Positions 1 to 32,159 of a stretch of DNA of 32,159 nt are shown piece after piece (within the stretch, counting starts at the first letter, position 1; every line of letters begins with the position of its first letter). A model generated the notes under the pieces. The model was given only the letters and a program-made list of their open reading frames with translations. It had not been told where the DNA came from and searched no databases. The DNA is taken from positions 1-32,159 of the IMG/VR virus record IMGVR_UViG_3300032225_000350; one strand, 5' to 3'. Made by a program: the position numbers and the translations under genes. Source of the stretch: a virus. Lineage: Duplodnaviria; Caudoviricetes.

Positions 1-123
1 AGGTGTTTGTTTGTACTGTTTCCGAACCACAGCAAATTTGTCTCTTCGCACCCGATCAAAACGAAATGATTCGACTGCCCCGTATCTGTTAAGAAAATAA
101 ATATCGTTTGTATCATATTTTGA
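1..123. repeat. Terminal direct repeat, copy 1 (circular overlap)
   Basis: Identical to 32037-32159, and an ORF reads in frame across the junction. Confidence 0.97.
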
Positions 124-2027: not shown

Positions 2028-3215
2028 TTAACTAAATGCAAATATACCTTTTCTATTATGTTTTTTACAATCATTTGCCAATGCAATGCTATTTACTGCG
2101 TCATCGTGCATTCCACTTGGTGCTGAATACTTAACTCCAGTTCTTGTGTACTCATATTCAAAGTTTTCTAATTCAAAACCGTAAGGTTCTTCAGGGAAAA
2201 ATATACTATGTTGTTGTATTTCCATTACCAATCCTTCCATAAGTTGTTGTTTGCTTTGTGAAGTGTATTTAAATCCTTTAATATTTGGCAATATGCGTTG
2301 CAAATCTTCTACAATAGGATCACCTACTCCGGTAGCATCTATATGTGCAGGGGTACGCCCTACGACATTTATGATCTTTTGTTTAGTTTGCATCCAATCT
2401 CCTTGAAATCTTTCCGTATAACACACTTTATTCATATTATCTAACCCAGTTATTACTGTCCAGTCCGTGTATTTTGCCAAATCTATTCCAAATGCAATTG
2501 GTATGTCTTTTGACAATGGTGAATAGCATTTGCGTATATTGTCTAATCCAAATGGATTACTATTATCATCACCAGGTTCTGCAAGGTATAACTCTTTAAA
2601 TACAAATTCGGGCAAATCTTTTTTTGCTTGTTCTATTTCTTCAACATCTAAAATGCCTTCTTTTGCAGCATCATATGCAGTTATCTTAAAAAACTTGTAG
2701 TCTGCTTCACCTAATCTTGCACGTTCACCTAACTTATAAAACCAATTCTTTTTGCCTTTTACGTTACCAATCATTTTACATTTACCTTTTGTAGCAGTTA
2801 ATGTACTACGTAGTGCATACCAACTTTCTTCACGCATACGACTTGCCTCGTCTACTACTGCTGCGTAAACGTCATCACCATACAAGTTATCGGGTTTTTC
2901 ACCTGACTTAAATTCTATTCTTGCACCATTTGGTAGTATCAATGTCAACTTACTTTCGTTTGAAATAAAAAAGTCTTTTTCACTTACTTGTGATTTCATC
3001 CTACGAAATGCGATTTCAGCTTGTTGGTAAACTGGTGCAATCCACCATACTGATTGATTATCTTTCAACTGCAATGCTTGTTCAAAAATCCATATAATAT
3101 GGCTTGCCGTTTTGCCACATTTGGTTGCTGCTGCTGTTATTGTGTAACGTTCCGGAGCATCCAAAATAGCTTGTTGGTAAGTCGTTAAAAATGGTCTTTG
3201 ATAGTTTATTTGCAT
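2028..3215 (-). CDS. terL: Terminase large subunit
   Basis: Walker A AATKCGKT, Walker B AVVDEA, and nuclease motifs FGIDLA and HDDAV. Confidence 0.95.
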   Translation of the reverse strand: MQINYQRPFLTTYQQAILDAPERYTITAAATKCGKTASHIIWIFEQALQLKDNQSVWWIAPVYQQAEIAFRRMKSQVSEKDFFISNESKLTLILPNGARIEFKSGEKPDNLYGDDVYAAVVDEASRMREESWYALRSTLTATKGKCKMIGNVKGKKNWFYKLGERARLGEADYKFFKITAYDAAKEGILDVEEIEQAKKDLPEFVFKELYLAEPGDDNSNPFGLDNIRKCYSPLSKDIPIAFGIDLAKYTDWTVITGLDNMNKVCYTERFQGDWMQTKQKIINVVGRTPAHIDATGVGDPIVEDLQRILPNIKGFKYTSQSKQQLMEGLVMEIQQHSIFFPEEPYGFELENFEYEYTRTGVKYSAPSGMHDDAVNSIALANDCKKHNRKGIFAFS

Positions 3216-4228
3216 AATTCTACAAGCATATTATATCTTTGCTCATTGATAGTTTTTAAATTATGGTATTTGTCACAATAATCATAGTTCCATTGTCCAC
3301 GACCTTCTATTGGGTTTATAATACTTTTTAAACATTGATACCAACTTTCAAAAGTATTATTGCATAACATAACACCAGGATTATACAAATGAAAACTATA
3401 AGGTTTTACATAACTGCAAATAATTGGTAATTTGTATGCTGCTGCTTCTACTATTTTCAATTCGCTTTTATACTGATTAAAATTATCTTCACGCAATGGT
3501 GCAATACAGAAATCAAATAACGCATAAGATTGACCATATAAGTCTGCACGTGTACCTAACACAGTTTTAAACCATTCAGGTCGTTTGTCTAACCCTACTC
3601 CCGTAATTGCTTTTTCGCATAGATGCCACTCGGTAGCATCACTATGATACCCACACATATAAAATTCAGCATCGTAATTTTCACAGAATCTTTTTACAGC
3701 ATCTCCTACACATTTCAAATCTTCTAAATGTGAAATACCACCAACCCATCCAACACGTAACTTATCTCCCTTTTGTTTTGCCAAATTCCATTGCTCAGAA
3801 GTCAAGTCTAAAGCGTTTGGAAACGTAATTGTATTTTCGTTAAACTCTTTTACCTTACTTGCAAGGTGATCAGTTGAACACGTTACAATATCCGCTAAAC
3901 TCATTGCATCTTTTACGCAGTTTTTAATCACTTTTTTATAAAACTTAAATGCTGGATTTGAACGTGGTATAACCCAATAATCGTCTATATCGCATATAAG
4001 TTTACATTTTGCCTTTAATATTGCCTCAAATACGTTGTATTGATAAATTCCACACCACCTATTGAATACTACTGCATCATATTGCATGTAATCAATATTT
4101 ATCCAATCGGTAGGGGTTTGCGAAACGTCAACAACTATGTCGTAATCTTGCTGCATTTTAGCATATGGGGTAAATAGTCTGTGAAAACTTACCCCACTAT
4201 TGTTATCCATTAATACTAATATCTTCAT
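3206..4228 (-). CDS. Glycosyltransferase (GT-B fold, group 1-like), likely start MKILVLMD
   Basis: Motifs DIDDYW, VGWVGG and FNQYKSELKIVEAAAYKLPIICS; ATGA coupling to the upstream gene at 4225-4228. Confidence 0.85.
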   Translation of the reverse strand: MKILVLMDNNSGVSFHRLFTPYAKMQQDYDIVVDVSQTPTDWINIDYMQYDAVVFNRWCGIYQYNVFEAILKAKCKLICDIDDYWVIPRSNPAFKFYKKVIKNCVKDAMSLADIVTCSTDHLASKVKEFNENTITFPNALDLTSEQWNLAKQKGDKLRVGWVGGISHLEDLKCVGDAVKRFCENYDAEFYMCGYHSDATEWHLCEKAITGVGLDKRPEWFKTVLGTRADLYGQSYALFDFCIAPLREDNFNQYKSELKIVEAAAYKLPIICSYVKPYSFHLYNPGVMLCNNTFESWYQCLKSIINPIEGRGQWNYDYCDKYHNLKTINEQRYNMLVELCK

Positions 4229-4416
4229 TCGCCCGGTAATAAAGGAATATACATCCAATATAATGGTTCTGCTTTAATTATTTCCGAATGTGATTCTACC
4301 CAGTCGCCATCAGTATCGTAATAACAAATCGCTTGTTCACCATTTTTATAAGTAACCAAGACATTTCTTTCGTCACTTGGCTTTTGGTCGCTTGTTAGTC
4401 TCCAACTTGCTTTCAT
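4225..4416 (-). CDS. Small hypothetical protein (DUF551-like)
   Basis: Pattern W...P...VLV...YWMYIPLLP; translationally coupled to its neighbours. Confidence 0.6.
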   Translation of the reverse strand: MKASWRLTSDQKPSDERNVLVTYKNGEQAICYYDTDGDWVESHSEIIKAEPLYWMYIPLLPGE

Positions 4417-9365: not shown

Positions 9366-10592
9366 TTATATTCTTTCTGTATATTTTGTGTACTTGCCTT
9401 CAAATGTAACTGGTATTGTTACTGTGCTGCCGTGTCTATTTTTTGAGATAATTAATTCAGCATCGCTTTCAACATCCATTTGTTCTTGTTCGTAGTATTG
9501 TGGTCTAAATGGGAACATCACGACATCCGCATCTTGTTCAATAGATCCACTTTCACGTAAGTCCGAGAGCATCGGTCTTTTGTCCGCACGTTGCTCACTA
9601 TTTCTATTTAACTGAGCCAAACAAATAACTGTGATACCTAATTCTTTTGCAATGATTTTTAAGTTTCGTGAAATTTCTGCAATCTCTTGTTCACGATTTT
9701 GCTTAGTCCCTTTTACTAACTGCAAATAATCTATGATTAAAATGTTTAAGCCGTGCTTTGCTTTGTGTAGTTGTGCTTTTGCCCGTATGTCGTTTATGCT
9801 GCTCTTTGCATCATCATCAACATAGAAATCAGTAGTAAGTTGGTATAAGCTATTTGCTATATGTTCGTGTTCGTTTACCTTTAAATTTCCACTCCTAATT
9901 TTAAAGTTTTCAATATTTGCAAAATAACTAATATAACGCTTTGCAAGTTCTTCACTACTCATTTCAAGTGACATAAATAAAACCTTTGCTACTTGTGATG
10001 CACCAATAGTTAAGGACAATGCAATTGCAGTTTTTCCACTTCCCGGGCGACCTGCAATGATAATTAAATTGCCTTTATTCCAACCACCAATATACTTGTC
10101 TAACATTTGCCACCCCGTTGTAAGTCCCATCAACTTATTACCACGTTTCATTTGTTCTTCAAGGTCATCAATTACCTTACCGGTTACTTTTGACATTGGC
10201 AATGGTTCACGTTCTAATGTTATCTGTGCTTCGGTAGTAATTAAACTCAAATCTTTTAGTATCAAATCTAATTCTTTGTGAACGTCTAAATTTGCGATTT
10301 GTTGGATTAACTTATTTTTTTTGTATATTATATCTAATTCAAATATATAATGCTTTAAATTAGTGCTATGTGCGTAAGAATTAGTAAACTGAGACAGTTC
10401 AAATGCTTTCCCTTTAAATTTACGTGATAAATTCAGTAAATCGATGGGTTGATTGTTTAAATAACATATCTGCATAAACTCAATTATTTCTGCATTCCAA
10501 CCTTCAAACCATTTGTGATTAATTTTAGGTAAAAATACGTGTGTGTTTTTGTCCATCAAAAACGTTCCGATAATATAATGTTCTCTATTCAT
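9366..10592 (-). CDS. dnaB: Replicative DNA helicase, DnaB family
   Basis: Motifs GRPGSGKT, SLEMS, IDYLQL, QLNR and LRESGSIEQDAD. Confidence 0.96.
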   Translation of the reverse strand: MNREHYIIGTFLMDKNTHVFLPKINHKWFEGWNAEIIEFMQICYLNNQPIDLLNLSRKFKGKAFELSQFTNSYAHSTNLKHYIFELDIIYKKNKLIQQIANLDVHKELDLILKDLSLITTEAQITLEREPLPMSKVTGKVIDDLEEQMKRGNKLMGLTTGWQMLDKYIGGWNKGNLIIIAGRPGSGKTAIALSLTIGASQVAKVLFMSLEMSSEELAKRYISYFANIENFKIRSGNLKVNEHEHIANSLYQLTTDFYVDDDAKSSINDIRAKAQLHKAKHGLNILIIDYLQLVKGTKQNREQEIAEISRNLKIIAKELGITVICLAQLNRNSEQRADKRPMLSDLRESGSIEQDADVVMFPFRPQYYEQEQMDVESDAELIISKNRHGSTVTIPVTFEGKYTKYTERI

Positions 10593-11238
10593 CTTGTAAT
10601 GTTGCTAATTTAGGTCTATTTGGTTTAACTTGTGTTTGTTTATTGTAATCTTTACTATTCCAATTTCTTGCTGTTGCTTTCCAATCTTTTACTGCTGTCT
10701 TACCTCTCATCCATCCTACACTTTCATAATAGTCATAAAAGTTTTGTGCATTCATTTCTGGAAATTCTTTTTTAATATCTTCAATTGTGGGTTTAATAAA
10801 TACTTTATTATTCTTTTTTTCTTCTTTTTCTTCTTCTTCTTCTATTGGTGTCGTTTGATGTTTGTTTGTGTTTCGTTTGCGTTTCACTGGCGTTTCGTTT
10901 GCGTTTCCTTCACCCTGATAAGTTTCATACTTACAAACAGTTAACCGTGTCGTTATGTTGTCGCTTTCCAATACAATCATTGAATCACTTTGTAACGCAT
11001 TCATAAAACGTCTAACCTTTGATTTATCCCAATTCCAACGCTTACCCCAACTTTCAAGTGATAGTATGCTTTGACCTCTTTTAATGTCGTACAACTTGCC
11101 TTTTATCATTGATTTTGCATCAGTAAAATTGACCATAAGTAAAATGTCGTGCCAGGCTTCAAACTTACTAAATGTTCTTTTTTCGGTATAAAGCCAATGG
11201 TCTTTTATTGACCTATGAATTTTTATCCAGCCACACAT
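10585..11238 (-). CDS. Phage replication initiator / replisome organizer
   Basis: N-terminal GWIKIHRS wHTH-type domain, C-terminal FYDYYESVGW...DWKATARNW, position upstream of the helicase, and internal iterons. Confidence 0.8.
   Translation of the reverse strand: MCGWIKIHRSIKDHWLYTEKRTFSKFEAWHDILLMVNFTDAKSMIKGKLYDIKRGQSILSLESWGKRWNWDKSKVRRFMNALQSDSMIVLESDNITTRLTVCKYETYQGEGNANETPVKRKRNTNKHQTTPIEEEEEKEEKKNNKVFIKPTIEDIKKEFPEMNAQNFYDYYESVGWMRGKTAVKDWKATARNWNSKDYNKQTQVKPNRPKLATLQDE
10805..10907. repeat. Putative replication origin: iterons plus a purine/AT-rich tract
   Basis: GTTTCGTTTGCGTTTC at 10870-10885 and 10892-10907 (22-bp period), a degenerate copy near 10848, and an adjacent T/C-rich tract. 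Confidence 0.65.
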
Positions 11239-11240
11239 AA

Positions 11241-11909
11241 TTAATTTGTAATTAAAATTTTGTTATGTTCATTGATAATATCTAATAAAGTATCATTATC
11301 AAAATCAAACCATTCTCCAAATATTCTATATTTTGAATACTTTAAATGTAATTTACTTTCAATATCATTATTAAATGATGCTATTAAAACCATATTTGTT
11401 TTAAATTCAGAATTTAAAGATAGAATTCTTTGAGTAATATTTTTACTTCTACCTATTTTGATAAAATTATTTTCAGGATTTTGTATTAAATATGTTTTAT
11501 ATTCAGTATAATTATTATTGTATTTACTATTTGGCAATAACATATAATCAATCCAATTAGTAATTTCAATTTTTGGCATATTGTTAAATTTACCATCTAC
11601 TAAATCCTTTATAAAAATTGCACTATTATGTGAATCATTATTCATACATAAAGCTAATTGAATTTTAGGATGCATATAAATTTTTTTATTATTTCCACGT
11701 CCAATTACTTCATATAATTTTAGTGATTTTAAAACTATTAAAATGCTATTTGTTTCACATTTTTGAAAAAATTCAAAATAGTCTGGTTCACCTATTTCAT
11801 TATAAATAATAAAATAAATTCTTTCTGTGTACATTTTTTTTCTGTACAAATCGTTTAAATCAAAGTTATCTAAATAACTGAATAGTGGTTCTAAGTTTTT
11901 TTTCTGCAT
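11241..11909 (-). CDS. T5orf172/GIY-YIG-like domain protein with a possible KilA-N-like N-terminus
   Basis: YLIQ...IKIGRSKN...R...ESKLH...RIFGEWF; YMHPKI resembles KilA-N; very AT-rich. Confidence 0.75.
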   Translation of the reverse strand: MQKKNLEPLFSYLDNFDLNDLYRKKMYTERIYFIIYNEIGEPDYFEFFQKCETNSILIVLKSLKLYEVIGRGNNKKIYMHPKIQLALCMNNDSHNSAIFIKDLVDGKFNNMPKIEITNWIDYMLLPNSKYNNNYTEYKTYLIQNPENNFIKIGRSKNITQRILSLNSEFKTNMVLIASFNNDIESKLHLKYSKYRIFGEWFDFDNDTLLDIINEHNKILITN

Positions 11910-12005
11910 AAAAAAAGCCCAACCAAAATAGTGCAGTTCAGGTGCGACTATTTTAATTGAGCCAATATCTTTTAAGTAATCGGAATCCTGAACATTCCAC
12001 TTAAC
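11910..12005 (-). ncRNA. Structured leader RNA / attenuator with complementary loops
   Basis: Two hairpins with loops GUUCAGG and CCUGAAC. The second is followed by U7, and a promoter lies immediately upstream. Confidence 0.7.
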
Positions 12006-12009
12006 AATA

Positions 12010-12041
12010 CAAATATAATCAATTTATTTTTCAAAAACAAA
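12010..12041 (-). promoter_or_regulatory. Early promoter TTTG-N20-TATATTTG
   Basis: Bacteroidetes -33/-7 consensus. Confidence 0.75.
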
Positions 12042-12950: not shown

Positions 12951-13138
12951 ATTTCAACTAAGTTAAAAAGTCCAACATAAGTAAACGAATCACATTCACC
13001 CAAAATCGCATCAGTTCCATAATGCTTGTATTTAGTTTTGATACTGCCCACAGTTGCATCTGCAACCTTTGATACTACCCATTCAAATGCTTCTTGCATT
13101 GAAAAAAATCGCTGAATAATTATTGTTTTCTTTTTCAT
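12944..13138 (-). CDS. Hypothetical protein
   Basis: First gene after the promoter at 13156. Confidence 0.65.
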   Translation of the reverse strand: MKKKTIIIQRFFSMQEAFEWVVSKVADATVGSIKTKYKHYGTDAILGECDSFTYVGLFNLVEIC

Positions 13139-31743: not shown

Positions 31744-32159
31744 AAGCGTTGTACCTTATCAGTAAATGAAAGTTCTACATCAATAGTTAAATTAAATACT
31801 TTGTCGTTTATAGTCTTTTTAGTTTCGTAGTCCGAATTAATCACGTTCACACTTTTTAAAATTCCCCCATCCATAAGCCAAACATAGGGTGACATCACAA
31901 GTTCTTTTAACCAGGCACTTTCTTCTTCGGTTATCCAATTTGAATTGAGTGTTATAATTTGATTTGCTTGTGTATCGTAGTTGCTTTTTGACTTTGCGTC
32001 TGTTCCATAGGTGTACGAACTACCCGACAAAGTGTAAGGTGTTTGTTTGTACTGTTTCCGAACCACAGCAAATTTGTCTCTTCGCACCCGATCAAAACGA
32101 AATGATTCGACTGCCCCGTATCTGTTAAGAAAATAAATATCGTTTGTATCATATTTTGA
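31740..32159 (-). CDS. 3' part of the junction-spanning tail protein that starts at 843
   Basis: Same frame; ends ITLNSNWITEEESAWLKELVMSPYVW...QRL. Confidence 0.8.
   Translation of the reverse strand, partial: SKYDTNDIYFLNRYGAVESFRFDRVRRDKFAVVRKQYKQTPYTLSGSSYTYGTDAKSKSNYDTQANQIITLNSNWITEEESAWLKELVMSPYVWLMDGGILKSVNVINSDYETKKTINDKVFNLTIDVELSFTDKVQRL
32037..32159. repeat. Terminal direct repeat, copy 2
   Basis: Identical to 1-123. Confidence 0.97.

Follow-up and report, generated by a model that had tools for sequence, protein, structure and literature searches.

A kissing-loop leader RNA conserved upstream of replication genes in Bacteroidota phages, a candidate ligand-free attenuator

Why would a phage place ahead of its replication genes a short leader RNA in which the loops of two hairpins are exactly complementary to each other? 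The question is raised by IMG/VR record IMGVR_UViG_3300032225_000350 (Duplodnaviria; Caudoviricetes), a DNA of 32,159 nucleotides which is referred to here at its full length as the window, and in which an earlier note, made from the sequence alone, had picked out such a leader. Analysis of the window and of related viral loci suggests that the element is a conserved leader RNA of Bacteroidota phages which acts as a ligand-free kissing-loop attenuator, a reading to which we assign a probability of roughly 0.6 and under which it probably governs the share of transcription that gets through to the replication genes.

The predicted leader RNA, of about 95 nt, is encoded on the minus strand (12004-11910) and runs from hairpin 1 through a linker and hairpin 2 to a U7 tract followed by an AUG. 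Its parts are listed below, the two loops being the halves of what we call the code.

12010-12041, minus strand: predicted Bacteroidota-type promoter, TTTG (12041-12038), 20 nt, TATATTTG (12017-12010)
11972-12004, minus strand: hairpin 1, composed of 6 bp, a 4-nt bulge and 5 bp
11987-11993, minus strand: loop 1, GUUCAGG (code half 1)
11964-11971, minus strand: unpaired linker, 8 nt
11916-11963, minus strand: hairpin 2, predicted intrinsic terminator, with a 17-bp lower stem, a C bulge at 11946 and 3 bp of GCA/UGC
11936-11942, minus strand: loop 2, CCUGAAC (code half 2)
11910-11916, minus strand: U7 tract, immediately followed by the AUG at 11909

The two hairpins, the U7 tract and the AUG lie on the minus strand with the coordinates and structure given in the earlier note, and the loops at 11987-11993 and 11936-11942 are exact reverse complements, as it had stated; it had counted five G-U pairs in the 17-bp stem, where we count four, and one G-U pair of this lower stem takes the first U of the U tract. 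Hairpin 1 reads UUAAGU-GGAAU[GUUCAGG]AUUCC-(GAUU)-ACUUAA, and the median linker is 9 nt in 34 elements with 7/7 loops. Hairpin 2 has the feature of an intrinsic terminator, a GC-based hairpin directly before a U tract, and is predicted to be one; a consensus scan did not list it. Transcription is predicted to start near 12005, behind a TTTG-N20-TATATTTG box (12041-12010) which we take to fit the Bacteroidota promoter consensus. Taken by itself the pattern shows no enrichment in the window (9 matches vs 5.3 expected); a TAnnTTTG box is found at an identical position across aligned relatives and upstream of nearly all kissing matches to the apex pattern described below.

Both the minimum free energy and the centroid fold contain the two hairpins and leave the two loops unpaired (-31 kcal/mol, z -4.87), and none of 200 shuffles folded as well. 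The leader folds at -29.2 kcal/mol against -18.2 kcal/mol for the opposite strand (z -2.57), so that a stable and strand-specific fold, together with the conserved pairing described next, bears out the structured leader. A first detector, which recovered only 25 of 60 elements because free-energy folding collapses the loops, found no loop match of at least 6 nt among 233 control hairpins, and a stricter detector gave two matches in 689,717 nt of control sequence, both of them the mirror image of one real element. The other GUUCAGG/CCUGAAC matches in the window (761, 9039, 17405 and 22290) lie in apparently coding DNA, the total being 6 vs 1.5 expected.

Searches blind to the loops weigh most as evidence of selection on the kiss, since the members of both covariation alignments were drawn from elements already seen to kiss. 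A pattern made up of the promoter box and the terminator tail only gave 120 loci (16 of 64 parts scanned) and 107 distinct cassettes, of which 98 have a terminator hairpin, and 86 of these 98 show a 6-10-base match between the hairpin apex and the 5' part. When the pattern fixed the apex stem and put no condition on the loop, the 39 of 64 parts that were scanned yielded 121 viral matches; 48 have the loop's reverse complement at most 100 nt upstream, in six codes, and a GG..UUUU tail is present in 48/48 of these kissing matches vs 3/73 of the remaining ones. In an alignment of 36 sequences, built by MAFFT without structure, 97.2% of kiss cells are paired and six of the seven kiss pairs change on both sides, while 0/500 shuffles reach the observed values and slid partners give 38-49%. 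For a second structural type, whose loops measure 14 and 10 nt and kiss over 8 bp, 96.0% are paired in 31 sequences and 7/8 pairs covary; across both types 0/500 shuffles are as high and slid controls give 30-50%. The hairpins covary too: in the 36-sequence alignment the upper five pairs of hairpin 1, which is also recovered by unconstrained RNAalifold, all show changes on both sides (90.6% paired), and so do 16/19 pairs of hairpin 2. Loop-loop pairing is thus conserved by compensatory change in the relatives, and by this comparative evidence the kiss is under selection. In the terminator stem of the second type (L230:1501-1605 and others) there is a conserved purine-rich 4x4 internal loop, UGAA opposite GGAU, which could form tandem G-A pairs, the alignment being read by eye.

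A conserved fold with one invariant kiss pair in each structural type could also be the mark of a fixed scaffold serving a protein, of phage or host origin, which antiterminates at a set time, the kiss merely building the fold. Models for antitermination by protein are the lambda pR'-6S-tR' region with Q and nut with N. A scaffold would fit the promoter-proximal terminator, the near-constant length (most elements measure 103-111 nt from promoter box to U tract) and the purine-rich internal loop of the second type, which was noted by eye. It fits less well with loop and stem letters that mostly vary freely (78 code strings in 145 elements, length variants included), with a scan in which an antiterminator family was recognised in 0/54 open reading frames (ORFs), or with a third site that tracks the code (described below), which would be left unexplained; we regard this explanation as unlikely.

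The element keeps company with replication genes. Among the best 80 of 179 helicase relatives, 58 loci had 1.5 kb of upstream sequence, and 51 of these carry the element, 41 by the strict detector and 10 seen additionally. The loop-blind set includes 56 elements with full flanks, behind which lie 52 distinct ORFs of at least 110 amino acids (three had no ORF, and in L271 and L280 the ORF behind an inserted gene was taken), and 42/52 fall into initiator, primase or helicase families, 35 named by PHROGs and seven in unnamed families shared with those. The element is kept while the initiator swaps families (DUF6291, DUF1376-like, HTH_36, DnaD-like, primase, helicase). The link to replication genes proposed for the window is upheld by both counts, and the element belongs to the replication module. 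Elements were also seen before Erf-like or other likely recombination genes (L219:1501-1603, L249:1501-1601, L324 and L332).

How could a kiss between two loops control these genes? Transcription would start just upstream of hairpin 1, and loop 1 would capture loop 2 as it emerges from the polymerase; with the kiss formed, the short linker would not give the base of hairpin 2 the slack to zip, and transcription would read through into the initiator and helicase genes, while a stem that zips first would lead to release of the ~95-nt RNA. Apart from the kiss, no conserved long-range pairing was seen. In a strand-swap comparison of the two main types, cognate hairpin arms pair no better than swapped arms, and there is therefore no classical antiterminator helix; an arm swap between the hairpins that had seemed to match by eye was rejected as not cognate-specific. 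In a rigid-rod model with the terminator fully zipped, the cis kiss is reachable in 6% of samples, at full linker stretch only, and with 3 bottom pairs open 91% reach it at full stretch; the price of opening 3-6 of these pairs, 5.5-11.3 kcal/mol, comes near what the loop duplex yields, about -8.9. Crude as it is, this geometry is consistent with a kiss that raises read-through, as that of guanidine-IV does, and it is because geometry and energies mirror the guanidine-IV competition between kiss and terminator that we favor an attenuator.

In guanidine-IV the terminator is blocked by a long-range kissing loop, and as P2 grows the linker shortens and the kiss comes under strain (PMC11611296). 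Like the phage leader, guanidine-IV (GGAM-1 / mepA) is composed within ~100 nt of two hairpins, the second an intrinsic terminator, joined by an interhairpin kissing loop, with no strand-swap antiterminator and with steric competition of kiss and terminator as the proposed mechanism. Its loop nucleotides are highly conserved and form a ligand pocket (PMC7736828), whereas 6/7 and 7/8 kiss pairs vary here and the phage leader has no evident ligand pocket. Guanidine-IV occurs mostly in Firmicutes ahead of guanidine transport and metabolism genes (exporters), in contrast to a leader of Bacteroidota phages ahead of initiators, primases and helicases. If the attenuator reading is true, kissing-loop antitermination extends from one riboswitch class to a ligand-free family.

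The same strain can be read another way. In the finished RNA the cis kiss looks strained, which would favor intermolecular pairing, and the element has its own promoter-like box and terminator; the product might thus be a free small RNA, always terminated, compact or made multimeric (dimers, rings) by the kiss, and acting elsewhere as a decoy, sponge or antisense RNA, with the downstream genes transcribed by leak or from upstream. Such an RNA would not account for the tight location 5' of initiator, primase or helicase genes, nor for an AUG often spaced 6 nt from where the U tract begins (22/145 elements), and no enrichment of code-matching targets was found in the next 200 nt outside the third-site subset. 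We consider a free small RNA quite unlikely.

The simplest input to an attenuator of this kind could be the released RNA itself. With its loop 2 free, it would pair with loop 1 of newly made transcripts that share its code and lead to their termination. As genome copies, or co-infecting phages of the same code, accumulate, the output of the replication genes would come under a code-specific negative feedback. We put this step forward tentatively; copy-number feedback by a short RNA, which had been suggested for the window, is a possibility. The full proposal, that lytic Bacteroidota phages have a one-piece circuit free of protein and ligand, in which a ~95-nt transcript antiterminates in cis and represses in trans, is more doubtful still. 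If true, the phage counts aborted transcripts, its own and those of same-code co-infecting phages, to time or cap replication, and the code of 7-8 letters defines interference groups among lytic phages, like plasmid incompatibility groups.

Several features hint at a sequence-addressed action of this sort. A third site, in which loop 1 is repeated in the stretch that separates the U tract from the AUG, occurs in 10/145 elements vs 3.0 +/- 1.6 expected (maximum 8 in 500 permutations); one of the ten is likely due to chance. It tracks the code in three lineages and lies just 3' of the U tract (L183, L197, L198, L202, L204, L203, L207, L210 and L358). When sequences less than 30% apart are compared two by two, both-side changes are 1.6 to 7 times as frequent in kiss pairs as in stem pairs, and G-U makes up 1/245 and 0/238 of kiss changes against 143/908 and 51/527 in stems. 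Three loci carry two differently coded elements each: L258 (1501-2075), L347 (877-983, 2898-2991) and L357 (1030-1133, 2882-2990). In L258 the two form a tandem, with a small ORF between them, ahead of the initiator.

A number of points weigh against the attenuator and, above all, its extension in trans. The start site and the terminator are predictions, the rigid-rod geometry is crude, its bend angles and other parameters being rough, and covariation is blind to whether pairing occurs in cis or in trans and whether the kiss activates or stabilises. No tuning input for a switch was identified. The element is absent in one clade (7 helicase loci), and in one locus of that clade which was read fully the ORFs abut the initiator with no gap, so the element is dispensable there; 10/52 downstream genes fall outside replication. 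Neither the window nor 135/145 elements have the third site. The idea that the code evolves faster than the rest gave a mixed result and was dropped: it holds against stems but not against all other sites, where the code is not clearly faster (0.022 vs 0.029, 0.018 vs 0.073, then slightly higher). No clear excess over other sites is seen, and the sequences compared do not form independent pairs, so that these rates do not establish selection for new codes.

In the window itself, the genes behind the leader are the following.

11241-11909, minus strand: first gene, 222 aa, with a C-terminal T5orf172/MUG113 (GIY-YIG-like) domain (Pfam PF13455, E 1.4e-10)
10585-11238, minus strand: DnaD-like replication initiator / helicase loader (phrog_2514, E 1.2e-27)
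9366-10592, minus strand: DnaB-like replicative helicase (PF03796, E 3.2e-89)

Initiator and helicase thus do follow the leader, as expected of a replication operon, but the gene immediately downstream is the 222-aa T5orf172/MUG113-domain ORF. The tblastn matches of the DnaD-like initiator include SPP1 gene 38 and 'replisome organizer' genes. In L023 and L078, relatives that share RNA and code with the window, the first gene is a different one, and the nuclease-like ORF is therefore likely a later insertion between RNA and initiator; no relatives of it were found in viral contigs, and a KilA-N-like N-terminus that had been suspected by eye was unsupported by Pfam, PHROGs, NCBIfam and PDB searches. 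The gap between RNA and initiator is a hot spot for a single inserted gene (window 11241-11909; L023, L037, L058, L271), the inserts being small ORFs, HNH or GIY-YIG-like genes, or a recurring protein of ~165 aa which starts MKFLEKDLE and has no match in Pfam or NCBIfam.

A GIY-YIG-like first gene, together with a third site beside the AUG in a minority of elements, would suit a control of translation, for example one that restrains a toxic nuclease, in which loop 2 masks the start region of the first gene unless it is held by loop 1. This is very unlikely: the window has no third site, the same RNA and code stand before another first gene in L023 and L078, and the GC base and U tract are kept in all 48 of the apex-selected matches.

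The window is a complete circular 32-kb phage genome of Bacteroidota type with its sizeable genes all on one strand, the circle following from a 123-nt terminal direct repeat (window 1-123 = 32037-32159). Among 54 minus-strand ORFs scanned with Pfam and PHROGs none matched an integrase, so the description as a phage without a recognisable integrase holds for a complete genome and these scanned ORFs. The element is also found in 8 of 11 GenBank phage regions examined, namely Flavobacterium phages tooticki6-1, mumin6-1, morran9-1, 11b and elemoA_1-9A, Cellulophaga phages phi13:2 and phi19:1, and Olleya phage Harreka_1 (the last two of the eight, from phi19:1 on, being read by eye from the sequence); it is absent in Riemerella phage RAP44, Vibrio phage 199E37-1 and one gut phage record. 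Phages tooticki6-1 and mumin6-1 have a common scaffold and different codes, GUGAGACG and GUGGAACG, each with its matching partner. In morran9-1 (L410:1212-1355) a hypothetical coding sequence is annotated in GenBank over the leader RNA, likely a spurious gene call. The carriers include cultured Muminvirus isolates; Nilsson et al. found no genes for lysogeny in the mumin phages and describe them as lytic only (PMC7077304).

In prokaryote assemblies 12/47 DUF6291 loci have the element, all on contigs of at most 45 kb in metagenome- or single-cell-type assemblies. It was found in 0/10 initiator loci on long contigs of named Bacteroidota isolates, and of 401 genomes around Flavobacterium rivuli (a Flavobacteriales-centred set) 10 match the cassette pattern and none kisses; it therefore belongs to phages, the host chromosomes searched having yielded none. 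Whole-genome searches with RNA models were insensitive, the first (R1) missing known diverged elements in 5 genomes and the second (R2), with 26 candidates scored per genome, giving one strong match in 151. BLAST of the element against GenBank phages returned weak terminator or promoter matches alone.

These carriers bear on a further alternative, an RNA primer or origin element like ColE1 RNA II, which is an RNA primer for DNA replication, or a P4-like immunity of a resident prophage. The place beside initiator and helicase would agree with either, and P4 silences its own replication genes by RNA-driven premature termination (PMC4825925); against it stand the lytic-only phages among the carriers, the element's absence at 10 loci on long isolate contigs and from the kissing count in the 401 genomes, the clade of close helicase relatives without the element, and the copies before Erf-like and other genes. 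We judge this alternative highly improbable. The RNA-based lysogen immunity offered as one meaning of the window's leader likewise does not agree with lytic-only Muminvirus isolates and with an element unseen at the 10 long isolate-contig loci, and lysogenic immunity is unlikely.

RNA control of replication genes through loop-loop pairing is a kind of system already known. The CI RNA of P4 (seqA, seqC; PMC4825925) is a short RNA from the leader of a replication operon and acts by premature termination; the phage leader shares the position and would, if it terminates as predicted, likewise yield a short RNA. The likeness in partners is partial, with an upstream partner here and a downstream one, beside the start codon, in the third-site minority to which the window does not belong. 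Unlike CI and c4, the phage leader has its partner loop at the tip of the terminator, there is no evidence of processing, and the carriers include phages described as lytic only, no integrase having been matched in the window genome. The c4 RNA of P1/P7 is Rfam RF01695 (table in PMC2864571), and the phage leader has no c4 match in Rfam.

Among plasmids, the I-complex and pT181 are the parallel: as in them, specificity in the phage leader would lie in a small number of loop letters, and its cis pairing could be open to competition by an RNA in trans. The I-complex (RNAI vs stem-loop I, repZ pseudoknot) and pT181 share with the phage leader a loop-loop recognition upstream of a replication initiator (PMC10724649), and to this extent the resemblance to ColE1 and pT181 drawn for the window stands. 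What defines those systems is a countertranscript, whereas the phage leader has both loops in one sense transcript and its antisense strand folds poorly. An antisense -7 box occurs in 19/145 elements vs 22.7 +/- 4.4 in shuffled ones, at scattered positions; an antisense countertranscript over the leader was discarded on this lack of enrichment, other promoter types not being tested.

With Rfam 15, whose covariance models are judged by their gathering thresholds, there were 0 matches in the window and 10 related loci, the element alone having chance-level matches only at E up to 10, and the elements of 6 further loci gave no match at E up to 5, so no family match turned up in the search that had been proposed. 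Among the closest published objects are freshwater phage candidates of Fremin et al. 2023 (PMC10690425), DNAVirus_187, _230, _4653 and _4859, of 49-124 nt, which are no more than 25 bp away from DUF1376, DUF4373, HTH_36 or Phage_rep_O genes; Bacteroidetes hosts are given for one of them. They are listed with 1-3 covarying bases and no terminator call, and 'kissing' is absent from the main text of that paper; compared by description and not by alignment, they may be pieces of this RNA family. No such motif is named in the table and passages of Weinberg et al. 2010 (PMC2864571) that were covered, and literature searches aimed at this RNA or at its analogues, whose coverage left out most subscription journals, found no description. 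Taken with the comparative support, which is strong, the element is a real, widespread and uncatalogued RNA family, which may overlap with the candidates of Fremin et al.

Bacteroidota are major recyclers in lakes and seas, and little is known of how their lytic phages time and limit replication genes. The element is common, with ~500 viral stretches matching one strict cassette pattern. Cultured carrier phages with laboratory hosts, two of them (tooticki6-1 and mumin6-1) with a common scaffold and differing codes, make the mechanism directly testable, and dozens of natural orthogonal codes would be parts for RNA-controlled expression in Bacteroidota.

Other boxes of the promoter type occur in the window on the minus strand. 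At 1129-1057 a TATATTTG box is followed by a U-rich stretch, an 11-bp hairpin and a GGGGG-U6 tail, a promoter-terminator unit of ~65 nt with a single hairpin and no kissing partner (z -1.83). TTTG..TATATTTG boxes at 15267-15237, before HTH/recombination genes, and at 13188-13156, before a 64-aa ORF at 13138, head short leaders without hairpins. Elsewhere, a glycosyltransferase gene (3206-4258, minus strand) directly precedes the terminase large subunit.
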